A stretch of DNA of 35,451 nucleotides from a virus (IMGVR_UViG_2695420367_000003:1-35451), one strand, 5' to 3'. Counted from the stretch's first letter, positions 11,569-29,308 are shown. Made by a program: numbers and translations. The notes: a model not told the origin generated them from the sequence alone.

Positions 11569-11699
11569 GAAGATACTCCTGTGCATTTATGGTACGAAGA
11601 AATAGCAAAAGGATTTTTACCGTAAATTGCGAATCTACAAAAGCAAAACAATGCGTAATATCAGAGTGAATATTCTGCCTTTAATGTGGGTCCTTCTGA

Positions 11700-11900
11700 T
11701 GACCTGAGCTCTCACGGGGCGGAAGGCGCGCGGGTTTTCGCTATTTATGAAAATTTTCCGGTTTAAGGCGTTTCCGTTCTTCTTCGCCGTAACTTAATGT
11801 TTTTATTTAAAACCCCCCCTGAAAAGAAAGGAAACGACAGATGCTGAAAACGGGCTTTTTGGCCTTTGTCGTTTCCTTTCTCTGTTTTTGTCCGTGGAAT
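11700..11900 (+). promoter_or_regulatory. cos: Helper cos site (cosN-like 12-mer at about 11717-11728, plus cosB with R sites and IHF site) upstream of Nu1
   Basis: …GGGCGGAAGGCG CGCGGGTTTTCGCTATTTATGAAAATTTTCCGGTTTAAGGCGTTTCCGTTCTTCTTCG… is nearly identical to the lambda cos region as I recall it, except within the 12-mer. Confidence 0.8.
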
Positions 11901-17849: not shown

Positions 17850-18125
17850 ATGTCGATGTACACAACCGCCCAGCTGCTGGCGGCAAATGAGCAGAAATTT
17901 AAGTTTGATCCGCTGTTTCTGCGTCTCTTTTTCCGTGAGAGCTATCCCTTCACCACGGAGAAAGTCTATCTCTCACAAATTCCGGGACTGGTAAACATGG
18001 CGCTGTACGTTTCGCCGATTGTTTCCGGTGAGGTTATCCGCTCCCGTGGCGGCTCCACCTCTGAATTTACGCCGGGATATGTCAAACCCAAGCACTTAGC
18101 ATGGCTTTCTGAGGCTTTCGTGTAG
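17850..18125 (+). pseudogene. E: Major capsid protein E, 5' portion only (codons 1 to about 82), interrupted by the satellite insertion
   Basis: MSMYTTAQLLAANEQKFKFDPLFLRLFF…SEFTPGYVKPKH matches the lambda gpE N-terminus, then diverges into 9 unrelated codons and a stop at the insertion junction. Confidence 0.9.
18085..18094. repeat. Left junction core (attL-like) AACCCAAGCA
   Basis: Identical 10-mer at 28518-28527; joining the flanks restores …GTCAAACCCAAGCATGAAGTG… (VKPKHEV of E). Confidence 0.75.
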
Positions 18126-18257
18126 TTGCTGGTTTTTACACTTAATCTTTTGATAATAAAGAATAAGTTTATCTGGCGCTTTCACTGGATTTTCCTCGTT
18201 ATCTGTGTGTTGCAATCATCTCTGTATTGCAGCTTGTATTGCTTTTTGGGGCTAAAA

Positions 18258-19493
18258 ATGGCTGGCGAGAACAAACTGAGCGACAAAGCACTTAAAGGAT
18301 ATCTGGGGAAACCCAGAGAAAAGCAGATCACCATTGCTGATGGAAAGGGGCTTTCTATTCGTGTGAGTACCAAGGGGGCTGTGAGCTTTGTTTTCTTCTA
18401 CAGGTTAGCAGGTGGCCGGGCTGCTCCGGTCTGGCTAACGTTGGGTAAATATCCTGATATGTCACTCAAACAGGCAAGGGAAAAGCGCGACGAGTGCCGT
18501 GGTTGGTTGGCTGACAAACGTGATCCGCGTATCCAGATTAAGATTCAGGCTGAAGAACGCTTAAAGCCGGTCACAGTGGAGGATGCACTAAATTACTGGT
18601 ATGAAAATTACTGTAAGGTGCGTCGTAAAACTCATGCTGTAACGCTTGGCAGATTTCGAAAGCATATCTTTCCCTATATCGGTCATTTGCCCGTAAATGA
18701 CACTCACCTATATGAATGGCTGGACTGTTTTGACCGAATTAAACGTAATGCACCAGTTATGGCGGCGTATGTTTTTTCTGACACTAAATTAGCTCTTCGT
18801 TTTTGTCGGGTACGCCAGTACGCGACGTGTGATGCTTTAAAGGATTTGCGCATGAGTGATGTGGGGCAGATTGCAGGTAAGCGGGATCGGGTTCTGGATG
18901 AAGCCGAACTGGGCCAGCTCTGGAAGGCAATTTTTGTCGAGCCTGATTTAAAACTAATGTCTGAATACACGCGAAAAATGTTTGTGCTTTGTACAGTATT
19001 TGGATGTCGAATGAGTGAAGCCCGATTATCAGAATGGAGCGAATGGGATCTCGAAAGTTGGGTTTGGACTGTACCAAAAGATCACTCAAAAACTGGTGTT
19101 GAAATCGTCAGACCAGTACCTGAAATTCTACGACAGTGGGTAACGGATGTTCACGAAGAGACAAAACATACTGGTTATGTGCTGGGAAGTCTGCGAATTA
19201 GAGAAAGCGTAAGCAAGATTGGGGGGAAAATCGGTAAACGTTTGGGCCATGAAAAACAATGGTCACTACACGACCTTAGAAGAACGCTTTCAACCCATCT
19301 GAGTGATTTGGGCGTTGAGTTTCATGTAGTGGAGCAGCTGTTAGGCCATGCGCTACCTGGCGTGGCAGGTGTTTACAACCGGAGTAAGTTTATGGCTAAA
19401 AAACTGGATGCTCTGGAACTCTGGACTACATATCTCAATAGCATCGCAGCTGCTGATTCAAAAGTGACAATCCTCAAACAAAAGGCTGGTTAA
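18258..19493 (+). CDS. int: Tyrosine integrase (P4-type, with N-terminal arm-binding domain)
   Basis: N-terminal …LSDKALKGYLGKPREKQITIADGKGLSIRVSTKGAVSFVFFYR…; catalytic-region motifs HDLRRT…LLGH…VYNRS; true ATG at 18258, the track start is upstream. Confidence 0.88.
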   Translation: MAGENKLSDKALKGYLGKPREKQITIADGKGLSIRVSTKGAVSFVFFYRLAGGRAAPVWLTLGKYPDMSLKQAREKRDECRGWLADKRDPRIQIKIQAEERLKPVTVEDALNYWYENYCKVRRKTHAVTLGRFRKHIFPYIGHLPVNDTHLYEWLDCFDRIKRNAPVMAAYVFSDTKLALRFCRVRQYATCDALKDLRMSDVGQIAGKRDRVLDEAELGQLWKAIFVEPDLKLMSEYTRKMFVLCTVFGCRMSEARLSEWSEWDLESWVWTVPKDHSKTGVEIVRPVPEILRQWVTDVHEETKHTGYVLGSLRIRESVSKIGGKIGKRLGHEKQWSLHDLRRTLSTHLSDLGVEFHVVEQLLGHALPGVAGVYNRSKFMAKKLDALELWTTYLNSIAAADSKVTILKQKAG

Positions 19494-19494
19494 C

Positions 19495-19728
19495 ATGAAA
19501 AAAATGGCAATTGTCGATAAAAAGGGTCTGGAGTACATTCCTAACATTGACCGTATGATCCGCGAAAAAGAATGCCGTGAGTTAACTACTCTTGCTAATA
19601 GCACTCGATGGAAGTTAGAGAAAGAAGGAAAGTTTCCAAAGCGTATTAAAATAGGTGCCACTGCCGTAGCATATCGCCTTTCGGAGGTGCAGGCGTGGAT
19701 TCGTGGGGAATGGTACTTAAATAAGTAA
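19495..19728 (+). CDS. alpA: AlpA-family HTH regulator/excisionase-like protein
   Basis: …ECRELTTLANSTRWKLEKEGKFPKRIKIGATAVAYRLSEVQAWI… fits the AlpA pattern; directly follows int. Confidence 0.8.
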   Translation: MKKMAIVDKKGLEYIPNIDRMIREKECRELTTLANSTRWKLEKEGKFPKRIKIGATAVAYRLSEVQAWIRGEWYLNK

Positions 19729-19736
19729 ATCATTTC

Positions 19737-19765
19737 AATTAGGTAGGTTTATTACCTACCTAATT
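19737..19765. terminator. Perfect palindrome AATTAGGTAGGT-TTATT-ACCTACCTAATT between convergent genes (bidirectional terminator candidate)
   Basis: Seen directly: 12-bp perfect inverted repeat with a 5-nt loop, between the alpA stop and the stop of the minus-strand 241-aa gene. Confidence 0.6.
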
Positions 19766-19768
19766 AAT

Positions 19769-20494
19769 TTAAATCATGTCTGCCTTATTTCCTAATTTTA
19801 TGGAGCAATCCTCTAAAAGATGCCCGATGAACTTATGAGTTCCAATAACATAATCTTGAAGCCTATATTCCATTCCTAATAATGACTTGTTCTCTTTGTC
19901 CTTGAAAAAAGGAAAAGAGGCAAGGTTTTCATCGACAATATAAAGGTGTTTGATTTTGTTGTTTAAAACCCTAGTTTCGTTAATGACATCGTAAGAATCA
20001 AGTTGGGAGAGGTCAATACCATAACTTAAGTATTTCTTTTTTAATTTATCCCATGTATATGGAACTTTAACTTGACTTTCAGGTATTTCTTTAATAATTG
20101 CTTCTAGCAAAGAGTATGCCATGGTACTAAACTGTTCAATAATAGCCCAAAGATTAATTACGACACTGTCATTGGCAAAAAATGAGGCTTTTCTATTAAG
20201 ATCATCATAATAACCAACCATCTCTCTATGTCTGGCTTGAGAAATCAAGGCCATTTCATGCACTTCATCGTCTAATAAGTCTGGATTATATTGGGGAGTG
20301 TTGTCTGCAATTTTTTGTATCTCCTTAAGATTTATGTTATATGTATGATAAACAAATGAGTGAAATACTATTAGATCTTCAAGTCGGAACGAAAATTTCC
20401 CAAGTAGAGACAGGAATCTACTATCATGAGGGAAATAATGTGGGATAGGATTGTCTGTTAAATTATATTCACTTATTCGTTTTAGATTTTGCAT
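19769..20494 (-). CDS. Hypothetical 241-aa protein, AT-rich cargo (function unknown)
   Basis: Long ORF, visibly AT-rich versus surrounding genes, co-oriented and 24 nt downstream of the RHH gene; no motif I recognise. Confidence 0.6.
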   Translation of the reverse strand: MQNLKRISEYNLTDNPIPHYFPHDSRFLSLLGKFSFRLEDLIVFHSFVYHTYNINLKEIQKIADNTPQYNPDLLDDEVHEMALISQARHREMVGYYDDLNRKASFFANDSVVINLWAIIEQFSTMAYSLLEAIIKEIPESQVKVPYTWDKLKKKYLSYGIDLSQLDSYDVINETRVLNNKIKHLYIVDENLASFPFFKDKENKSLLGMEYRLQDYVIGTHKFIGHLLEDCSIKLGNKADMI

Positions 20495-20518
20495 CTCTCA
20501 CAGATCCTTTTAAAAGTC

Positions 20519-20713
20519 TTAACCTCTAGGTTCAATACCTTGTTTGCGTAGTTCTGCTCTTGCTAGTTCTTTAAGCCAATTAGCCAAACTCATTCCTTCT
20601 TTTGCAGCCGCACTAACCATTTGTTCTTTTAGTTCCGGGTGGATACGGATCTGAAATGCCGGTGCCTTACCAGCACCTTTCGGCTGTTTATCGCGCTGAA
20701 TGATAGTTGACAT
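20519..20713 (-). CDS. Ribbon-helix-helix (CopG/Arc-like) DNA-binding protein; candidate repressor or antitoxin
   Basis: 64 aa; …FQIRIHPELKEQMVSAAAKEGMSLANWLKELARAEL… is typical of RHH proteins; first gene of a leftward operon diverging from the replication module. Confidence 0.65.
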   Translation of the reverse strand: MSTIIQRDKQPKGAGKAPAFQIRIHPELKEQMVSAAAKEGMSLANWLKELARAELRKQGIEPRG

Positions 20714-20716
20714 GTA

Positions 20717-20817
20717 TGTACCTATTGCTTAGTATGCTTCTTGATAGGTACACACCTTATCATGTTTTATTACTCTGTAACAACGCCCTGCAGTGCTCGC
20801 AACACATACAGGGCGTT
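20717..20817. promoter_or_regulatory. Divergent control region with two 9-bp inverted repeats, each with an 18-bp spacer
   Basis: TGTACCTAT…ATAGGTACA (20717-20752) and AACGCCCTG…CAGGGCGTT (20782-20817), between the divergent RHH gene and the 20853 ORF. Confidence 0.5.
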
Positions 20818-20852
20818 TAACCACCAACGATAGCAACAGTATCGAGGTAGCT

Positions 20853-21056
20853 ATGAGAAATCATACCACACACCCGCAAGGGCGGGACCCGCACAACCTG
20901 AATAAATACATCTGGCGTTTTATCGCCCTGAGTACGGCACAACCGCGCGTGATTACCATCGAGGCCACCAGCGAACAGGAAGCCCGCCAGCAATCCCCAA
21001 CTGGCTGCGTGATGATATTCGCCGCCCGTATTCGTCAGGAGGTGTGCCATGAATGA
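20853..21056 (+). CDS. Hypothetical small protein (67 aa)
   Basis: GAGGTAG RBS before the ATG; first gene of the rightward operon leading to the primase. Confidence 0.5.
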   Translation: MRNHTTHPQGRDPHNLNKYIWRFIALSTAQPRVITIEATSEQEARQQSPTGCVMIFAARIRQEVCHE

Positions 21057-21273
21057 TCTTTATTTGAAAGTGCTGACACATGCTGAAAACGCGCTCGTTT
21101 GTGGCAAAAATATGCGAGAAATCTTATCAACCTGGCTTGATGGGACAACAAATGCGGAACACGATGAACGGGATGCTAATTTAGCTGGAGCGTTAATTAC
21201 GTTACTTGATCCTGTCATCAAAGAGCTGGATGAAGCTATAAAAATACACGACCAGAGCTATACCGGAGAATAA
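21049..21273 (+). CDS. Hypothetical small protein (74 aa)
   Basis: AGGAGGTG RBS; start overlaps the upstream ORF stop. Confidence 0.5.
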   Translation: MNDLYLKVLTHAENALVCGKNMREILSTWLDGTTNAEHDERDANLAGALITLLDPVIKELDEAIKIHDQSYTGE

Positions 21274-21276
21274 AAA

Positions 21277-21564
21277 ATGAAAAATAAATTTTCTGGCTTT
21301 ATTGCCAGCGGTCAAACTCATTCAAAAATCAGCCTTGGGGATATTTTCAAAGACAGCTATGGCTATCGGGTAAAGATTATTTCGGTTGATGATCGTCGTG
21401 TCTCTTATTTGCGTGATGGTTATGATTTTGAATGTGTTATGCCGCGTCAGCAGTTCGAAAGAGATTTCATTCTGGTAAAAAATTGCAAGACAGATAATCA
21501 GAGGCGTGCCGCAGGCTATATCCGTAAAATTCGGGCAATGTTAGTTGCCGGAGGTAACAAATGA
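21277..21564 (+). CDS. Hypothetical small protein (95 aa)
   Basis: GGAGAA RBS; stop overlaps the primase start. Confidence 0.5.
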   Translation: MKNKFSGFIASGQTHSKISLGDIFKDSYGYRVKIISVDDRRVSYLRDGYDFECVMPRQQFERDFILVKNCKTDNQRRAAGYIRKIRAMLVAGGNK

Positions 21565-23381
21565 AACGTGCTCCGAACTTAAAATACCAACCGCGCGACA
21601 AAATGACGGAAGTCATCATTTTTGCTGGCAGTGATGCCTGGAGCCATGCAAAAGAATGGAATGAATGGGCAGGTAAGCATATTGCAGCAGATGATACACC
21701 ACCAGTCATTCTGGGTACAGAACAACTGGAAAACCTGGATGATATGCAAATTATCGATGAAGGCCGTCATTATGTGCGTGTTTATCGTGCTGGAAAGATT
21801 GCAGAGAAAAGTCTGACGAAGGTTGCGACATTACTTGCTATTGCAGGCGTAAAGGAAGCACGTTGTTACCGTAGCTTTGTTGATCGAGAGCCTGAAGACT
21901 GGACTCCGCGCCTTGTCGGCCTAAAAGCTGAAGCGGAGCATGGGGAAAGTCTGGTGATTGAACTGCCAGTGAAGAAGGCAGAGCGCAAAAATGACGAGCG
22001 TGCTTCATCTTTGGCGTTGAATCAGATGGGGGCCAGCCAGCGCGGTGAAGTTCTCCTTGCACATTACGGCGGCGAACTGGCAATCAATGCCGACTCTGAC
22101 ACCGTTCATCATTACAACGGCGTTGTATGGGAGCCGGTTCAGGATAAAGAGTTACAGCGTGCTATGGCGCAGATTTTCATTGATGCGGAGATCAGCTATT
22201 CGCAGAACGCTATTAAATCGGCGGTAGATACCATGAAGTTAAGTTTGCCTGTAATGGGGAATACAGCCCGTAACCTGATTGGATTCAGTAACGGGGTATT
22301 TGATACCAGAACTGGTAATTTTCGGGAGCATAACAAAAACGACTGGTTGTTAATTGCCAGTGAATTACCTTTCAGCCCACCAGCAGAGGGGGAAACGCTG
22401 GCAACACATGCGCCGAATTTCTGGAAGTGGTTGCGCCGTTCGGTGGCTGAGAATGACCGCAAGGCAGATCGCGTACTGGCGGCATTATTCATGGTGCTGG
22501 CGAACCGGTACGACTGGCAGTTATTCATTGAGGTAACAGGGCCGGGGGGAAGTGGTAAAAGTGTGATGGCGGAGATTTGCACCATGCTGGCGGGTAAGGC
22601 GAATACAGTATCAGCAAGCATGAAGGCGCTGGAAGATGCAAGGGAACGTGCGTTAGTGGTTGGCTTTTCGCTGATTATCATGCCGGATATGACCCGCTAC
22701 GCTGGTGATGGGGCAGGGATTAAGGCCATTACAGGCGGTGACAAGGTGGCAATTGACCCGAAACACAAAGCCCCCTATTCAACGCGTATTCCGGCAGTAG
22801 TGCTGGCGGTTAACAATAACGCCATGTCATTCAGTGACCGCAGCGGGGGGATCTCACGTCGTCGGGTGATATTCAATTTTTCGGAAGTTGTACCGGAGAA
22901 CGAACGCGATTCGATGCTGGCGGAAAAAATAGAAGGTGAGCTGGCGGTAGTGATTCGTCATCTGCTTACACGGTTTGCTGATCAGGACGAAGCCAGACGC
23001 CTGTTATATGAGCAGCAGAAATCTGAAGAAGCACTGGCGATAAAGCGAGAGGGGGATTCGCTGGTGGACTTCTGCGGCTATCTCATGGCATCGGTAATGT
23101 GTGATGGCCTGTTAGTGGGTAATGCTGAAATTGTGCCATTCAGCCCACGCAGGTATCTCTATCATGCCTATCTGGCTTATATGAGGGCACATGGGTTTGG
23201 TAAACCTGTAACACTGACGCGCTTCGGTAAAGATATGCCGGGGGCAATGGCGGAATATGGCAGGGAGTATATGAAACGGAAAACGAAGCACGGTTTGCGT
23301 TCAAACGTGACACTGACGGAGGAATCAGAAGACTGGATGCCATCATGTGTATCGGTCACTAATGACGATAGCAAAAATTAA
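21561..23381 (+). CDS. Phage/plasmid primase-helicase (P4-alpha-like domain with SF3 helicase Walker A GPGGSGKS)
   Basis: 606 aa; Walker A and downstream helicase-like motifs; immediately followed by the iteron array. Confidence 0.85.
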   Translation: MKRAPNLKYQPRDKMTEVIIFAGSDAWSHAKEWNEWAGKHIAADDTPPVILGTEQLENLDDMQIIDEGRHYVRVYRAGKIAEKSLTKVATLLAIAGVKEARCYRSFVDREPEDWTPRLVGLKAEAEHGESLVIELPVKKAERKNDERASSLALNQMGASQRGEVLLAHYGGELAINADSDTVHHYNGVVWEPVQDKELQRAMAQIFIDAEISYSQNAIKSAVDTMKLSLPVMGNTARNLIGFSNGVFDTRTGNFREHNKNDWLLIASELPFSPPAEGETLATHAPNFWKWLRRSVAENDRKADRVLAALFMVLANRYDWQLFIEVTGPGGSGKSVMAEICTMLAGKANTVSASMKALEDARERALVVGFSLIIMPDMTRYAGDGAGIKAITGGDKVAIDPKHKAPYSTRIPAVVLAVNNNAMSFSDRSGGISRRRVIFNFSEVVPENERDSMLAEKIEGELAVVIRHLLTRFADQDEARRLLYEQQKSEEALAIKREGDSLVDFCGYLMASVMCDGLLVGNAEIVPFSPRRYLYHAYLAYMRAHGFGKPVTLTRFGKDMPGAMAEYGREYMKRKTKHGLRSNVTLTEESEDWMPSCVSVTNDDSKN

Positions 23382-23394
23382 ACTTATGGAATAA

Positions 23395-23620
23395 CTGTTC
23401 ACCACTGTTCACCCTGTCATAAATATCTTTTATATCAGTATATTATAGGGTGAACAGTTATTTATGAACTGTTCACCAAACTATTCACTGTTCACCTTTT
23501 TGATTGTTTATTGAGCTTCAAGGGTGAACAGTGGTGAACAGTTGGTGAATAGTTTTTGTGAAACTGTTCACCCATTAACATTATGAATTAAAAGAGAAAA
23601 TATCAAAAGGTGAACAGGTG
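23395..23620. repeat. Satellite replication origin: at least 10 copies of the iteron GGTGAACAG/CTGTTCACC in both orientations
   Basis: Seen directly: the motif recurs at about 23396, 23406, 23449, 23469, 23489, 23524, 23534, 23545 (variant), 23565 and 23610 within an AT-rich stretch downstream of the primase. Confidence 0.8.
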
Positions 23621-23668
23621 AAGGGTTAAAACGCAAAAATTTTAATTTACTGCTGTGAGATAAAGCCT

Positions 23669-23914
23669 ATGACAGCGAAGCACACAAAAAAATCACAATC
23701 GCACGCCCTTGATTTGACGGAACACTGGTTAAGGGTGTCGATAAAAATCATCGACCGCAACGCCGGGGAAGGATACGCGAAAGCACATCCCGAACTGATT
23801 AGCGCATTCATGACAACGGCGGCTGCAAACTTTGCCACTCTGACCGAACGGGAGATTGCTGAAGCGGAGGAAGTGACAACAATCAATATTAAGTCCGGAG
23901 AGCAGGCAGCATGA
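23669..23914 (+). CDS. Hypothetical protein (81 aa)
   Basis: ORF overlapping the SSB-like gene start; no recognisable motif. Confidence 0.45.
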   Translation: MTAKHTKKSQSHALDLTEHWLRVSIKIIDRNAGEGYAKAHPELISAFMTTAAANFATLTEREIAEAEEVTTINIKSGEQAA

Positions 23915-24360
23915 TGGCGCAAATATCAGTTTACGGGCGGTTGGTGGACGACCCGCAGACAAAACAGACCAGCAAGGGCACCCCCATGACGCTGGCGCGT
24001 ATGGCGGTATCAATGCCCTGCAGTCAGTCGGATGACGGTCAGGCGACGATGTGGTTATCTGTCCTGGCGTTTGGCAGACAAGCCGACGCACTGGCAAAGC
24101 ATCACAAAGGCGAACTCCTGAGCGTGGCGGGTAACATGCAGATGAGCCAGTGGACTGGACAGAACGGCGAAACGCGGCAGGGCTGGCAGGTTATCGCAGA
24201 CAGCGTAATCAGTGCGCGATCGGTGCGACCGGGCGGCAAAAAAGGCCAACAGGGGCAGGCTACTGACGAACTGAACAGAGCAAAACAACAGGCAGATCAG
24301 CAAGGAAGCCAGCCACCAGTGGGAGATAATGAGCAATGGGGAGATGATATCCCGTTTTAA
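23911..24360 (+). CDS. SSB-like single-stranded DNA-binding protein with C-terminal acidic DDIPF tail
   Basis: OB-fold-like N-terminal region parallels E. coli SSB; Gly/Gln-rich linker; C-terminal …EQWGDDIPF. Confidence 0.7.
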   Translation: MMAQISVYGRLVDDPQTKQTSKGTPMTLARMAVSMPCSQSDDGQATMWLSVLAFGRQADALAKHHKGELLSVAGNMQMSQWTGQNGETRQGWQVIADSVISARSVRPGGKKGQQGQATDELNRAKQQADQQGSQPPVGDNEQWGDDIPF

Positions 24361-24375
24361 ATATTGCCAATAAAA

Positions 24376-24401
24376 AAGGCCGGAAAAAATAAATTTTCCG
24401 G
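24376..24401. terminator. Hairpin GCCGGAAAA-AATAAA-TTTTCCGGC downstream of the SSB-like gene
   Basis: Perfect inverted repeat with A-rich and T-rich arms; a possible terminator or attenuator before the capsid genes. Confidence 0.4.
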
Positions 24402-24576
24402 CATGCTACATAAATCCCGACCAAAGGGAGTGAAGATATTAACACTAATTGTCCGCACTGAAGTTGTCACCCCAAAACTTTATACAACATTGCACTCGGT
24501 TGCATGTGTTCGCATGACAAATATCGGTGGTAGCATATATCCACAATTATTTTTAATGAATGCAAAGAGGATGCGT

Positions 24577-25617
24577 ATGGTTGATTTATATTCGCCTACT
24601 CAGCTTGTACAGGTGGTTAATGCTGTAGATGTACAAAAACAACTAAATGCGTTGTTTACCAGTTTGTTTTTTACTCGCTCGGTAATGTTTGAATCGCGCG
24701 ATATTATTCTTGATACAATCGACGATCCAAATATCCCAATTGCAGCGTTTTGTTCTCCTATGGTGGGTAGTAAAGTTTCACGTGACGAAGGGTACGAATC
24801 AAAAACAATTCGTCCAGGCTATATGAAGCCGAAAAGCAGCATTGATCCAAATAAGTTAGCTGTGCGCCCTGCTGGTGTATCACCTGAGCAATACAATGCT
24901 TTTGGGGCACGTAATATTAAAGTTAAACAGGCGATTGTAAATCAAGCTAAAGCTATTCGTGCACGTATTGAATGGCTTGCTGTTCAGGCAATCACAACGG
25001 GGAAAAATATCATTGAGGGCGATGGTATTGAACGTTATGAGCTGGACTGGAATATTAAACCACAAAATATCATCACTCAGTCTGGCGGTGCTGAGTGGTC
25101 AGGTAAGGATAAAGAAACTTTTGATCCAAATGATGATATTGAGAGCTACGCAGAATTTAGTGAGGGCGTCACTAATATTATCATTATGGGCGGTAATGTA
25201 TGGAAGAAATACCGTTCATTCAGAGCGATAAAAGAGGCTCTGGATACCCGTCGTGGTTCTAATTCCGAACTGGAAACGGCCCTTAAAGACCTTGGTGATT
25301 CGGTGAGTTTTAAAGGGTATATGGGCGATGTTGCGATTGTTGTATACAGCGGGCGTTATACCGACGAGGACGGAACTGAAAAACATTTCCTTGATCCTGA
25401 TTTGATGGTGCTTGGCAATACGGCTCTTCAGGGGATTGTCGCCTATGGCGGTATTCAGGATCCGGAGCTAATCCGAATGGGGCTGACTAAAGCCGAACTT
25501 GCACCGAAAAACTATATTGTGCCTGGTGATCCGGCTATTGAATATGTGCAGACACATTCAGCACCACAGCCAATACCGGCCCGCATCAATCGTTTTGTTA
25601 CCGTTCGCATTGGCTAA
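24577..25617 (+). CDS. Satellite-encoded major capsid protein, diverged homolog of lambda gpE
   Basis: C-terminal 180 aa align to lambda E (…SGGAEWSGKDKETFDPNDDIESYA…LDTRRGSNSELETALKDLG…GDVAIVVYSG…); N-terminal half diverged but collinear (RPGYMKPKS vs TPGYVKPKH); GAGG RBS 6 nt before the ATG at 24577. Confidence 0.85.
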   Translation: MVDLYSPTQLVQVVNAVDVQKQLNALFTSLFFTRSVMFESRDIILDTIDDPNIPIAAFCSPMVGSKVSRDEGYESKTIRPGYMKPKSSIDPNKLAVRPAGVSPEQYNAFGARNIKVKQAIVNQAKAIRARIEWLAVQAITTGKNIIEGDGIERYELDWNIKPQNIITQSGGAEWSGKDKETFDPNDDIESYAEFSEGVTNIIIMGGNVWKKYRSFRAIKEALDTRRGSNSELETALKDLGDSVSFKGYMGDVAIVVYSGRYTDEDGTEKHFLDPDLMVLGNTALQGIVAYGGIQDPELIRMGLTKAELAPKNYIVPGDPAIEYVQTHSAPQPIPARINRFVTVRIG

Positions 25618-25626
25618 GGGGGAGCA

Positions 25627-25968
25627 ATGGCTACTCATTACACTGAACTCATGGCTGGCACTGAAGCACTGGTGACTACACTGGGGATATTTTCAGCTAA
25701 TAAAGGGGTAATTCATGCATTTACGCCACTGATGCAGGAAGATGCAACAGGTGCACTGGTGGTATGGGATGGTTCGAGCGTAGGTAAAGCGGTTTATGTT
25801 TCCGCTGTACAAATCGACACCGCGAAAAAAACACAGGCTCAGGTCTATAAGACAGGTGTCTTAAATGTTGATGCTCTGAACTGGCCTGAGTCTGTTAAAG
25901 AACTGTCAGTAAAGGTTGCAGCGTTTGTTGGCTCAGGTATTTCTGTTCAGCCGCTGGCTCGTGTGTAA
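25627..25968 (+). CDS. Satellite-encoded head decoration protein, diverged homolog of lambda gpD
   Basis: 113 aa; shares the spaced pattern TPLM…WDG…G…Q.YK.G…WPE…AF.G..ISV with lambda D (copy at 17462-17794). Confidence 0.65.
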   Translation: MATHYTELMAGTEALVTTLGIFSANKGVIHAFTPLMQEDATGALVVWDGSSVGKAVYVSAVQIDTAKKTQAQVYKTGVLNVDALNWPESVKELSVKVAAFVGSGISVQPLARV

Positions 25969-25979
25969 AGGGGGATACA

Positions 25980-26363
25980 ATGCAGAATGATTACAATGAC
26001 CTTAAGCCAATTGCCGAAATGATGTACCCGAATCAAGCTGTAGAGGAATTAAAAGCTATCGCTGACAAAATGTGTTTAAGCGAGCGCCTTGTTGATATGA
26101 ATCAGGTGATGGAAATTACAACCCTGAGTCGTCGTACACTGCTAAACCTTGAGGCTAGTGGAGAGTTCCCGGAGCGTGTGCAGGTTACGGAAGGGCGTAA
26201 GGCCTGGTATTTAAGTGAAGTGATCGACTGGATAAATAATATTCCTCGCGCTTCTGAATATTGCCGCGTACCTGTCCCAAAAAAGCCAGATGCGGCGCTA
26301 TGCCTCAAGATTGAGCGTGTACGCCGCAATGCACGGGATGGTCGCTATAAGCTGATTGGTTGA
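25980..26363 (+). CDS. HTH DNA-binding protein (AlpA/MerR-like motif) adjacent to satellite cos
   Basis: …MEITTLSRRTLLNLEASGEFPERVQVTEGRKAWYLSEVIDWI… helix-turn-helix; last gene before cos. Confidence 0.6.
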   Translation: MQNDYNDLKPIAEMMYPNQAVEELKAIADKMCLSERLVDMNQVMEITTLSRRTLLNLEASGEFPERVQVTEGRKAWYLSEVIDWINNIPRASEYCRVPVPKKPDAALCLKIERVRRNARDGRYKLIG

Positions 26364-26413
26364 TGAAGTTAGGGCCCGCTCTGGCTGGCGGGTCCTTTCC
26401 GGCGATCCAGAAC

Positions 26414-26600
26414 GTTACGGGGCGTCAGGCGCGCAGATTCTTGCTATTTATGACAATTTTCTGCGATTTGCCGTTTCCGTTCTTCTTCCTCGTAACTTAG
26501 TGTTTTTACTAGAAATACCCTCTTAAAAGAAAGGAAATGACAGGTGCTGAAAACAGGCTTTTGGGTCTCCGTCATTTCCTTTCTCATTTTTATCTAAAAG
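26414..26600 (+). promoter_or_regulatory. cos: Satellite cos site (cosN-like 12-mer at about 26420-26431 plus cosB-like R and IHF elements), no terminase gene attached
   Basis: About 190 bp closely similar to the helper cos region (…CGTTTCCGTTCTTCTTC…AAAAGAAAGGAAA.GACAG.TGCTGAAAAC.GGCTTTT…TTTCCTTTCTC…); not followed by Nu1. Confidence 0.8.
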
Positions 26601-26815
26601 TAAGCATCGAGGCCACCCCAAATGCTTATAGAGGTTATTGTGTCACTATGCGTACTGTTCAGGATTTAAAGTAGCAAGACATCTAGTTGCTTGCAGTTTT
26701 GGCGAATGATGTGAGGTTCTCTATAACAGATAATGTAACAAGTTACTGATATATTCTGTTATGGTTGACTTTAAATTCTGTTGCTCCTTCAATGAATTAT
26801 TGAGGGGTGAAAATT

Positions 26816-26841
26816 AGGCGTGATAAGAATCGATCACGCCT
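26816..26841. terminator. Hairpin AGGCGTGAT-AAGAATCG-ATCACGCCT just beyond the 3' end of the minus-strand cargo gene
   Basis: Perfect 9-bp stem; T-rich on the plus side and A-rich on the minus side. Confidence 0.5.
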
Positions 26842-26846
26842 ATTGT

Positions 26847-28163
26847 TTATCTTGAAGAAATTTTAGGCAGGCTTTTTAAAAATAAATCTTTATTTCTACT
26901 TGCATCAGTTAAAAGTGTTAGGAATATTTTATCTGTAGGAGTGCATGTGCTCTTGTTTAACAGTAATTCACCAAGTTTCTGTAATCGAGAGAATTGCCCA
27001 TCCTCTTGGATTCTGTGACGAAGTGTACTATCATTTTTAATAACATCAACAAATGCAGAAACCATGTTAATATCAAAGTATTCAAACATTTCCAATATTA
27101 AAGGTGCAGCCCCATTTGAATAAAAATTCTTCCTTCCATACTGATAGCTGAAACCACGATGGCCAACATAAGTTTTTGTAATGGCTGAAACAAATTCAAC
27201 AATATTATCTTCAGGGACGAAACTCGAGAATGGTAATAATTGGGTTACGATTTTTTCCTCTTCTGACCAATTATCTAAAGACTCGGTGAGTTTATTAATG
27301 AGAGGCTCAATAATAACTTTTCGGGATGCAGGGCTAATATACATCAGTCCATCTACCAATAGTATGAATTGTTGTGCCTTCTCTATCTTATTGTTGTTTC
27401 CTGAAACTAAATACTTGTCAAATTGTTGGCCGACTTTACGTCGGTCGTCTTTTGAAAGTAATGTCCATAAAATAGGTGCGCAAAATTCAATGTTGTTTCT
27501 GAGTTCACTTGATATATTGGATGAGCAGTATGTGCCAAAAAAACGAGAGGATAATTCACTGATATAAATTGCAGGTAGATCTGAAAAGGCTTGCTTAACT
27601 GCCAGACTATTTTTATTAAATGTTGCCGAATCCATTTCTGAAAGATATGTAGATATATCTATGATGGCTGGTGGAAACTCTTTAGAAAGAACGTATTTAT
27701 TACAATCATTAATCAGGTTCACTACTTTGATTAAATCAGGGTCGCTACTTTGTGGATGTCCACCAAATAGATTCCTGGTTTCTCTAGCTTGTTGTAATAG
27801 TTTCTGACCTTCTCGATCGATAACTCCTATTTTAAATGCTCCATCTATTAAATCAAAGTCGCTCACATAATCCTGAAAATCTTCATACGTTTTAATTTCT
27901 TTTTTTTGTTTACACTCTTTGTTGAATAGATCTAGGCTACGATGAATTATCTTTTGACGTAAATCATCAACTACAGCATTCCAGTAAGCAGTGATGGCAC
28001 TTCTATAACCTTTTACAGGAAGAACTCTTATTGCTTCTGAAATATATGGGCAGTCAACTACATCATGCCTCACAGTTGAGAGCGCAGTTTGTAACAATGT
28101 AACTTCTGTAGAGTCTAGTGGAGTTGGCTGCACTAAATGAGAACTTATCTCTGTACCCTTCAT
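26847..28163 (-). CDS. Hypothetical 438-aa protein, AT-rich cargo (function unknown; candidate accessory or defence gene)
   Basis: Long uninterrupted ORF, visibly AT-rich, between satellite cos and the right junction; no motif I recognise. Confidence 0.6.
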   Translation of the reverse strand: MKGTEISSHLVQPTPLDSTEVTLLQTALSTVRHDVVDCPYISEAIRVLPVKGYRSAITAYWNAVVDDLRQKIIHRSLDLFNKECKQKKEIKTYEDFQDYVSDFDLIDGAFKIGVIDREGQKLLQQARETRNLFGGHPQSSDPDLIKVVNLINDCNKYVLSKEFPPAIIDISTYLSEMDSATFNKNSLAVKQAFSDLPAIYISELSSRFFGTYCSSNISSELRNNIEFCAPILWTLLSKDDRRKVGQQFDKYLVSGNNNKIEKAQQFILLVDGLMYISPASRKVIIEPLINKLTESLDNWSEEEKIVTQLLPFSSFVPEDNIVEFVSAITKTYVGHRGFSYQYGRKNFYSNGAAPLILEMFEYFDINMVSAFVDVIKNDSTLRHRIQEDGQFSRLQKLGELLLNKSTCTPTDKIFLTLLTDASRNKDLFLKSLPKISSR

Positions 28164-28517
28164 TTCAGGATTTTCCTATTCTTTTCCATTTTTCTACTCT
28201 ATTGAATTTGAAAAAGATATCAAGTTCGTTCTTGCCAGTTTTAAGTGGAAAAATTGATGTTACCTTATTGAGATAAGGCAGTTCTCTATAACCTATTGTT
28301 ATTAATTATTTTTATTTTTTTTCCAATTCAGATGTTTAGGGCTAAGAAGTTAAGTGAGAGTTCACAGCAAAACTGCTTCTAGTTCCTCACCGAGGAGCAA
28401 AAGGTTAAGACAGCGTACTTTGTATTGCACAATGTATTGCAGAACCTTCTTTCGAAAGCTACAACAATCAATTTTATATTGAAAATTCAATCATATCCTT
28501 TCGATATTGACTCATAT

Positions 28518-28527
28518 AACCCAAGCA
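28518..28527. repeat. Right junction core (attR-like) AACCCAAGCA
   Basis: Identical to 18085-18094; the downstream sequence continues in the E reading frame. Confidence 0.75.
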
Positions 28528-29308
28528 TGAAGTGAATCCGCAGATGACCCTGCGTCGCCTGCCGGATGAAGATCCGCAGAATCTGGCGGACCCGGCTTAC
28601 CGTCGCCGTCGCATCATCATGCAGAACATGCGTGACGAAGAGCTGGCCATTGCCCAGGTGGAAGAGATGCAGGCAGTTTCTGCCGTGCTTAAGGGCAAAT
28701 ACACCATGACCGGTGAAGCCTTCGATCCGGTTGAGGTGGATATGGGTCGCAGTGCGGCGAATAACATCACGCAGTCCGGCGGCACGGAGTGGAGTAAGCG
28801 TGATAAGTCCACGTATGACCCGACCGACGATATCGAAGCCTACGCGCTGAACGCCAGCGGTGTGGTGAATATCATCGTGTTTGATCCGAAAGGCTGGGCG
28901 CTGTTCCGTTCCTTCAAAGCCGTCAGGGAGAAGCTGGATACCCGTCGCGGCTCTCATTCCGAACTGGAGACAGCGGTAAAAGACCTGGGCAAAGCGGTGT
29001 CTTATAAGGGAATGTATGGCGATGTGGCCATCGTCGTGTATTCCGGACAGTACGTGGAAAATGGTGTCAAAAAGAACTTCCTGCCGGACAACACGATGGT
29101 GCTGGGCAACACTCAGGCACGCGGTCTGCGCACCTATGGCTGCATTCAGGATGCGGACGCACAGCGCGAAGGCATTAACGCCTCTGCCCGTTACCCGAAA
29201 AACTGGGTGACCACCGGCGATCCGGCGCGTGAGTTCACCATGATTCAGTCAGCACCGCTGATGCTGCTGGCTGACCCTGATGAGTTCGTGTCCGTACAAC
29301 TGGCGTAA
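28520..29308 (+). pseudogene. E: Major capsid protein E, 3' portion (codons about 80 to 341), separated from its 5' portion by the satellite
   Basis: …KHEVNPQMTLRRLPDEDPQNLADPAYRRRRIIMQNMRDEELAIAQ… to the C-terminus …DPDEFVSVQLA matches lambda gpE; no own start codon or RBS. Confidence 0.9.

Follow-up and report, generated by a model that had tools for sequence, protein, structure and literature searches.

What does a single AT-rich gene do at the very end of a phage satellite, transcribed in the direction opposite to the core genes? The question is raised by positions 26847-28163 of a 35,451-nucleotide stretch of viral DNA (IMGVR_UViG_2695420367_000003:1-35451), the whole of which is referred to below as the window, and where an earlier note had pointed out a candidate accessory or defence gene. 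Our analyses place this gene, hereafter the cargo gene, in a replaceable cassette at the 3' end of a helper-embedded phage-inducible chromosomal island (HE-PICI), and predict that its product combines an N-terminal HEPN-fold domain with a C-terminal ARM/HEAT-like alpha-solenoid. The reading that we favor, with a probability of roughly 55%, is that the protein acts on its own in abortive infection, as a HEPN RNase subject to auto-inhibition. The coordinates of all features are collected in Table 1.

Composition and conservation of the cargo gene

The cargo gene is intact and under selection. The stop-free run in its 1.9-kb cassette extends over 442 codons, as compared with a mean of 82 and a maximum of 194 in 5000 shuffles of the cassette, and the composition-based probability of 438 stop-free codons is ~3e-15. 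Comparison with the Cronobacter copy gave a nonsynonymous divergence (pN) of 0.138 together with a saturated synonymous divergence (pS) of 0.80, and therefore points to strong purifying selection; every one of the close homologs of the protein is full length. An antisense open reading frame (ORF) of 128 aa at 27181-27567 is probably spurious because it lies wholly within the conserved cargo gene. The gene has a GC content of 34.8% (26% at third codon positions, GC3), whereas values of 43-57% were obtained for the core genes of the satellite and of 54-57% for TerL and the capsid-E fragment, the helper genes that were measured. By region, the GC fraction is 0.34-0.35 over 26501-28500 and rises to 0.45-0.59 to the left and right, the AT-rich sequence including non-coding flanks on both sides of the gene (26592-26846 and 28164-28481). 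The hairpin downstream of the stop codon has a free energy of -15.1 kcal/mol (z = -4.65; 0/200 shuffles equally stable) and appears bidirectional because T-runs follow on each strand. The earlier note had described a single long minus-strand ORF, AT-rich relative to the rest of the element, surrounded by AT-rich non-coding DNA and bordered by a hairpin terminator, and this description is borne out throughout, the coordinates of the ORF being exact and its length far beyond the shuffle maximum.

A predicted HEPN domain and a predicted solenoid

The full-length AlphaFold model of the cargo protein, built from a 39-sequence alignment, is all-helical, with a predicted local distance difference test score (pLDDT) of 86 and a predicted template modeling score (pTM) of 0.71; residues 1-170 modelled alone reached a pLDDT of 89.4 and a pTM of 0.83. 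Foldseek searches of the PDB with the full-length model returned nothing at E <= 1e-3, and its best matches were weak importin/ARM hits (template modeling score ~0.27), which were taken only as a hint of a solenoid. These solenoid matches vanish once the structure search is limited to residues 1-170, a model whose structural neighbors include Csm6-type HEPN proteins. Structure prediction, which the earlier note had put forward as a way to look for folds such as HEPN, has thus placed a HEPN fold in residues ~30-165, an assignment that is well supported by the models, so that, by subtraction, residues ~170-438 would form the ARM/HEAT-like solenoid. The two parts evolve at different rates, with a mean pairwise identity of 75% for the HEPN domain versus 53% for the solenoid.

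The same note had recognised no motif in the protein, but an invariant R-N-x4-H is present. Across relatives at 20-25% identity, the sole invariant columns are W61, R130, and H136, and in 41/41 diverse sequences R130 and H136 are unchanged, making them the only invariant polar residues over the superfamily; position 131 is N in >90% of sequences and H in a few members. R130 stands at the end of helix 117-134 and H136 at the start of the loop formed by residues 135-143, ahead of helix 144-159. According to the published definition of the HEPN superfamily (Anantharaman et al. 2013, PMC3710099), the motif R is followed by a polar residue (N, D, or H), helices 2 and 3 are separated by an insert, and helix 2 contributes an acidic residue of the Ex3[KR] type. 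The cargo protein has its R-x5-H at the corresponding helix end and loop, N131 directly after the R, and a helical hairpin (residues 93-111) as the insert, whereas the segment comparable to Ex3[KR] in helix 2, D67-L-R-Q-K71, is invariant in the close family but varies at the acidic position in distant relatives. By the features tested, the predicted structure is consistent with membership of the HEPN superfamily.

The same residues bear on whether such a domain would be catalytic. An inactive HEPN domain could serve as an RNA-, nucleotide-, or protein-binding regulator or scaffold, in the manner of Roquin or MtlR, in a role unrelated to immunity. We regard this as unlikely: inactive HEPN domains characteristically lose the motif R and H (PMC3710099), whereas in the cargo family R130 and H136 are precisely the polar residues that are kept, with N131 after the R; and a patchy distribution, foreign GC content, and cargo positions on mobile genetic elements argue against a non-immune housekeeping role.

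The host element and its terminal slot

In the window lies a lambdoid prophage with its major capsid gene E divided into two fragments. The N-terminal fragment of capsid E ends in ...GYVKPKH at about 18096 and the protein resumes as ...PKHEVNPQMTL at about 28520, both att junctions being read from translations, as a search for a direct repeat at the att core was uninformative. Between the two halves lie, in this order, attL (at capsid-E codon ~82), int (a tyrosine integrase), a 5' variable zone, a D5-type primase, a single-stranded DNA-binding protein (SSB), a gpE-like capsid protein, a gpD-like decoration protein, AlpA, cos, the cargo gene, and attR, with the core genes co-oriented with the late operon; RefSeq genomes show an identical layout of split capsid E and satellite. 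The satellite is a HE-PICI of the E:Phage_cap_E:80 type, inserted at capsid-E codon ~80, a site type published by Tommasini, Mageeney & Williams (2023, PMC10111431), and it resembles the elements described there in its insertion at this codon, its co-orientation with the late operon, and its order of int, AlpA, primase, SSB, and capsid genes. The satellite cos recognised in the earlier note is real, being 86% identical to the helper's own cos at 11690-11890 upstream of Nu1. The same note's comparison with P4-like satellites does not hold. A P4-like satellite (P2-type helper, Sid, Psu, delta) is excluded by the lambda-type cos, the gpE-like and gpD-like genes, and the embedding in a lambdoid prophage; resemblance to P4 is confined to the D5-type primase and to an Icd-like gene found in sister elements.

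Some further details of the satellite can be recorded here. Its cos and that of the helper differ at several bases in the segment equivalent to lambda cosN (helper ...ACGGGGCGGAAGGCGCGCGGG..., satellite ...ACGGGGCGTCAGGCGCGCAGA...), and no small terminase gene follows cos in the window satellite, whereas one is present in several sister elements. Just downstream of the primase gene, at 23384-23572, direct and palindromic repeats (GGTGAACAGTT...AACTGTTCACC) occur in four or more copies, a cluster that fits the satellite replication origin, which the HE-PICI paper puts downstream of pri.

Homology with sister HE-PICIs spans AlpA and cos, breaks at 26586-26591, and restarts at 28482-28499; the cargo gene and its flanks therefore form a replaceable cassette of ~1.9 kb. 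The decoration-AlpA module was found in 419/5426 complete E. coli genomes, 12 of which carry the cargo gene, always at this position. In other sister HE-PICIs the slot is occupied by a TIR-domain protein, a HEPN + DUF262 pair, or an "abortive infection family protein," all of which may be defence genes, and in further capsid-E HE-PICIs by a DUF2971 protein or an unrelated 311-aa hypothetical protein, the last of these being the sole alternative occupant that is not antiparallel to the core genes. In relatives inserted at the portal gene, clpS, and phoQ, the slot is free of cargo, and the junction is preceded only by a terminase small subunit and a small ORF annotated as hypothetical. The cargo gene is also carried in a second setting of this kind: the Cronobacter (80% identity) and Phytobacter (84%) copies are carried by fis-integrated, capsid-forming PICI-like islands (cf-PICIs), where they are flanked by fis and the large terminase gene, again at the satellite 3' end and antiparallel to the core genes.

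The view that this is a cargo hotspot is supported because of this comparative genomics of sister elements, which the earlier note had recommended at the same position; its description of accessory cargo at the element edge, opposite to the core genes, is confirmed by the breakpoints and the exchanged occupants of defence type. The Penadés laboratory has reported that the 5' or 3' ends of PICIs code for immune systems (PMC11364771), and the present slot resembles both these regions and the P4 psu-int/cos hotspot (PMC9122126) in being variable, AT-rich, and next to cos and att, and in exchanging unrelated defence genes between otherwise near-identical elements. It differs from the P4 hotspot in belonging to a lambda-dependent element that lies within its helper, with no P2/P4 pair, and from both in that its occupant in the window matches no recognised system. 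A terminal slot for cargo or defence, of the kind that the cargo gene fills, is not among the four zones defined for HE-PICIs (Integration, Bro, Replication, and Late), and defence cargo is not discussed in that paper (PMC10111431).

The position between the satellite cos and attR, inside the helper late operon, might on the other hand suit a satellite life-cycle factor, for example one that cuts helper or competitor late transcripts to bias packaging or that times helper induction, and factors interfering with the helper are common in satellites. This is very improbable, as just 12 of the 419 E. coli genomes that have the decoration-AlpA module contain the gene, the slot in sister elements holds unrelated genes or nothing, and homologs also occur outside satellites, on plasmids and on chromosomal islands of Xanthomonas, Bacteroidota, and Campylobacterota.

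Distribution and genomic contexts of the family

The cargo gene had been called an orphan, but 858 homologs from many phyla were retrieved at E <= 1e-3 when 5.8 billion cluster representatives were searched by word index, and the family has entries in both Pfam (PF27235, "AF_1680") and PHROGs (phrog_27609). Campylobacterota, Xanthomonas, Stenotrophomonas, and others have full-length relatives that are 50-60% identical, and Cronobacter has one at 80% identity. Nearly all close homologs carry PF27235, an assignment precomputed for P0001, which represents the 90%-identity cluster of the cargo protein, as well as for homologs of 80-50% identity. The match to phrog_27609 extends over residues 1-438 and profile positions 1-418 of 418 (E = 2e-188). 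The cargo protein is thus a full-length member of these families, of which PF27235 is known here by name only and phrog_27609 is listed as of unknown function. An exhaustive phmmer search of 1.84 billion 50%-identity representatives returned 372 clusters at E <= 1e-3, of which 27 at E <= 1e-30, with a common architecture of ~410-495 aa. The 90% cluster itself has 129 members, two of them found on 422 and 367 contigs.

In a pattern scan of 185,579 species, each represented by a single genome, at least 40 loci of the close family were identified, dispersed among Enterobacteriaceae, Campylobacterota, Gamma- and Deltaproteobacteria, many Bacteroidota, Aminicenantes, Lentisphaerae, Chlorobiales, Nostoc, and others. 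The enterobacterial copies have a GC content of 35-36% in surroundings of ~52-53%. Because the distribution is patchy and crosses phyla and the enterobacterial copies are low in GC, horizontal transfer of the family is suggested. A tblastn search of 50,697 phage genomes gave no match to the cargo protein, and the gene is therefore not seen in sequenced phage isolates.

Several homologs lie among genes associated with defence or mobility. For example, plasmid pBM374-1 of Klebsiella variicola (NZ_CP063918.1 131526-150839, L066) carries a 93% identical copy in a defence island that reads DUF4041, IS30, Fic, and the homolog, directly followed by an "anti-phage protein Ppl," a P-loop NTPase, and an N-6 methylase. 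The Campylobacterota copy follows a TIR protein near YoeB/Phd and PemK modules, and the Xanthomonas copy shares its island with a transposase, X-Tfe effectors, and SymE. Prevotella sp. oral taxon 376 has three homologs (L040, L051, and L054), each with a tyrosine integrase, a GNAT protein, a Toprim/DnaG-like primase, and a VapE/DUF5906 protein, which looks like a multi-copy integrative satellite-like element carrying the same cargo. Among the 142 nearest neighbors of the family, PADLOC matches comprised IetS (two), mads (two), a type IIG restriction-modification system, AbiLi, ZorB, PD-T4-6, and HKD+Snf2.

No fixed partner emerged from these contexts. When the ORFs within 6 kb on each side of 39 loci were clustered all-against-all, no partner gene was common to three or more independent loci, the only recurring neighbor sets being the three copies of the one element in the single Prevotella genome; Pfam families among the 142 nearest neighbors did not recur, and no nucleotidyltransferase (MNT) was found among the families listed for them. 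These results bear on a selfish addiction or stabilization toxin, in which a HEPN RNase would be neutralized by a small antitoxin that has escaped recognition (encoded in the cassette as a tiny ORF or as antisense RNA) and would stabilize the satellite, plasmid, or island. Such a toxin is improbable, given that neither a neighbor family, an MNT, nor any other antitoxin family is conserved across the 39 loci, that no Rfam RNA reaches threshold in the cassette, and that DNA conservation between E. coli and Cronobacter covers only 76 bp upstream of the gene and nothing downstream.

Plasmids also carry more distant relatives. A paralog of 476 aa, WP_001460374.1, is ~22% identical over 84% of the query and is found, for example, on E. 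coli plasmid pEco-CTX-M-15 at 6815-8245 (L067); its match has the same identity, E-value, and range on all of the listed plasmids from Escherichia, Shigella, Klebsiella, and Enterobacter (about 50 besides pEco-CTX-M-15), and it is annotated as hypothetical among toxin-antitoxin, integrase, and IS26 genes. Other relatives, on Clostridium perfringens and Streptomyces plasmids, are lone "hypothetical" genes amid toxin-antitoxin and recombinase genes. The contigs of three distant relatives (P0163, P0153, and P0122) are too short for context; one of these, P0153 (L064 1794-2591), is immediately followed by a Hypoth_Ymh (PF09509) gene, a single case on a short contig.

Expression of the cargo gene

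DNA similarity between the E. coli and Cronobacter copies begins 76 bp upstream of the ATG, at 28239, and ends within the 3' end of the ORF, and the match with Phytobacter ends upstream at 28180. This upstream region may hold a promoter of its own; it includes a sigma-70-like TTGATA-16-TAGAGT at 28223-28196 and an AGGA 11 nt ahead of the ATG. The cassette has no terminal inverted repeats and is therefore not transposon-like. Transcription of the gene runs against the helper late operon and ends at the bidirectional-looking hairpin, a layout that suggests a lysogen-expressed moron.

This layout is of interest for a further alternative, a counter-defence gene, such as a HEPN nuclease degrading the signalling RNAs or nucleotides of host immunity. 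Plasmids and satellites do bear anti-defence genes, and Csm6-type HEPN proteins are among the structural neighbors. We nevertheless consider this the least probable of the explanations, since transcription against the late operon, apparently from the gene's own upstream region, suggests lysogenic rather than lytic expression, the neighbors and slot-mates are genes of defence type, and no CARF or SAVED-like sensor is present.

Proposed function and comparison with known systems

We therefore return to the proposal of an auto-inhibited HEPN RNase of the abortive-infection type. The cargo gene would be a lysogen-expressed moron in the 3'-terminal accessory slot of the HE-PICI, encoding a two-domain protein with an N-terminal metal-independent RNase of HEPN fold and a C-terminal ARM/HEAT-like alpha-solenoid. 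The conserved N-terminal domain would act as effector and the faster-evolving solenoid as regulator or sensor. HEPN enzymes are normally dimers or tetramers that pair their Rx4-6H motifs. In uninfected cells the RNase would be kept inactive; infection would provide a cue, most probably a phage protein to which the solenoid binds, that releases or assembles the HEPN active site; the activated enzyme would then cut tRNA, mRNA, or rRNA, halting translation and leading to abortive infection, so that the lysogen population, and hence the satellite-helper composite, would be protected from competing phages. Our proposals on RNase activity, auto-inhibition, oligomeric state, the solenoid's role, the trigger, and an anti-phage phenotype are all inferences. 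A broader version, that PF27235 is a widespread, hitherto unrecognised single-gene immune sensor-effector family in which the solenoid recognises a phage protein and activates the fused HEPN RNase, with the satellite copy sparing its own lambdoid helper and excluding rivals, is more doubtful, and we put it forward tentatively.

A number of observations weigh against the proposed function. At the level of sequence, local Pfam-A and NCBIfam scans of the cargo protein gave no match, and sub-threshold Pfam hits (PhiKZ_gp35 at E 0.04 and others) were dismissed as chance; scanning 30 diverse members of the family against Pfam at E <= 1 brought up no recurring family and no HEPN model; and a hidden Markov model profile search of PDB sequences returned only a spurious 11.8-bit match. 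The HEPN assignment accordingly relies on predicted structures and one short motif, as no sequence-level link to solved HEPN proteins was found. PADLOC-DB v2.0.0 (2023) gave 0 defence families at E <= 0.01 for the cargo protein, which like the rest of its family is annotated as "hypothetical protein" in every source. The association of the family with defence islands is suggestive, and many homolog loci are flanked by ordinary housekeeping genes. Finally, the match to the sigma-70 consensus is no better than chance.

The closest precedent in concept is HepS, a single HEPN protein of the Salmonella prophage Gifsy-1 that is activated by a phage tail-tip protein, cleaves tRNA anticodon loops, and spares its own prophage (PMC13043305). 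With HepS, detection of a phage structural protein and cleavage of RNA are shown to be possible within one HEPN protein, but at 218 residues HepS is essentially a HEPN domain only, whereas the cargo protein has 438 aa with a solenoid of ~270 aa, and no sequence similarity between the two is detectable. The HEPN RNases of biological conflict include HEPN-MNT toxins, RnlA/LsoA, the C-terminal HEPN domain of AbiA, Csm6/Csx1, and Cas13 (PMC3710099); the cargo protein differs from them in having no MNT, Dmd-type antitoxin, CARF, reverse transcriptase, or ABC-ATPase as partner or fusion. Likewise, the defining partners of HEPN-MNT, RnlAB, CARF-HEPN, and the ATPase-fused anticodon nucleases PrrC and RloC were not found with the cargo gene. 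No characterised system in PADLOC-DB v2.0.0 or in a literature search matched the HEPN + ARM/HEAT-like architecture, and searches for PF27235, AF_1680, WP_016247987, and HEPN with solenoid and anti-phage terms found nothing relevant, in a literature coverage that leaves out most subscription journals.

The type of host element and the idea of satellite defence hotspots were thus already known, whereas the predicted HEPN + solenoid architecture of the family, the recurrence of its members in the terminal slots of two PICI lineages, and the recognition of this slot in HE-PICIs are new. If confirmed, the family would be a new single-gene anti-phage family, combining a HEPN RNase with a solenoid sensor and ranging from Enterobacteria to Bacteroidota and Cyanobacteria, and HE-PICIs would have a swappable defence slot beside attR, like P4 and classical PICIs. 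Should the solenoid indeed act as sensor, it would represent a new trigger-recognition module for HEPN proteins of abortive infection and give HE-PICIs a defence function. The location of the satellite within its helper's capsid gene raises the question of how an abortive-infection nuclease would avoid firing on its own helper, as HepS does with Gifsy-1. The self-contained cassette of 1.9 kb, with two obvious sites for point mutants (R130 and H136), makes the proposal directly testable, and even if no defence function were found, the family would still be an uncharacterised conserved HEPN family that is frequent on mobile elements.

Table 1. Features of the cargo gene, its host element, and the alternative occupants of the slot. 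Positions are those of the window unless a locus (L) is given.
Feature	Position	Strand	Remark
Cargo ORF	26847..28163	-	ATG start, 438 aa, coordinates including the stop codon; RefSeq WP_016247987.1 "hypothetical protein"
Hairpin	26815..26842	both	10-bp stem, 5 nt past the cargo stop codon, terminator-like
Predicted HEPN-fold domain, residues ~30-165	27669..28076	-	Predicted structure
Predicted elements of the HEPN domain			Helix 1 39-50, helix 2 53-83, helical-hairpin insert 93-111, helix 3 117-134, helix 4 144-159
Predicted catalytic motif R130-N131-L-F-G-G-H136 (Rx5H)	27756..27776	-	Codons CCT (reverse complement AGG) and ATG (reverse complement CAT)
Predicted ARM/HEAT/MIF4G-like all-helical solenoid, residues ~170-438	26850..27656	-	Proposed sensor/regulatory domain
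Upstream region	28164..28239	-	76 bp, DNA-level conservation with Cronobacter copies
Variable cargo cassette	26592..28481		~1.9 kb, GC 34.7%; edges are homology breakpoints with sister HE-PICIs
Satellite cos region	26397..26590	+	Lambda-like
HE-PICI	18096..28520	+	~10.4 kb, ends approximate
attR junction and C-terminal fragment of helper capsid E	28519..29308	+	
Slot occupant: TIR-domain protein, 380 aa	L013 9563-10705	-	WP_000688840.1; sister HE-PICI
Slot occupant: HEPN + DUF262 pair	L056 4741-6457	-	WP_000389900.1 / WP_032298611.1; sister HE-PICI
Slot occupant: "abortive infection family protein," 253 aa	L057 5671-6432	-	WP_001021158.1; sister HE-PICI
Slot occupants: DUF2971 protein; unrelated 311-aa hypothetical protein			Further capsid-E HE-PICIs

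Other genes of the window

The 5' variable zone of the satellite contains a second AT-rich antiparallel ORF, just past the integrase (19769-20494, minus strand, 241 aa, GC 32.5%). This gene is a near-true orphan, with only 10 homologs among 5.8 billion proteins, all of them in Enterobacterales, and no Pfam, PADLOC, or NCBIfam match; the otherwise similar element of EC931 has genes encoding helix-turn-helix, DUF2971, and SWIM proteins in its place. In the left part of the window, upstream of the region with the helper lysis and terminase genes, lies a pair of convergent genes, of which the first (1811-5719, plus strand) encodes a 1302-aa inverse autotransporter of the intimin/invasin type with IAT_beta and Big_1/Invasin_D3 repeats, and the second (5756-6799, minus strand) a 347-aa alpha/beta-hydrolase (BD-FAE).

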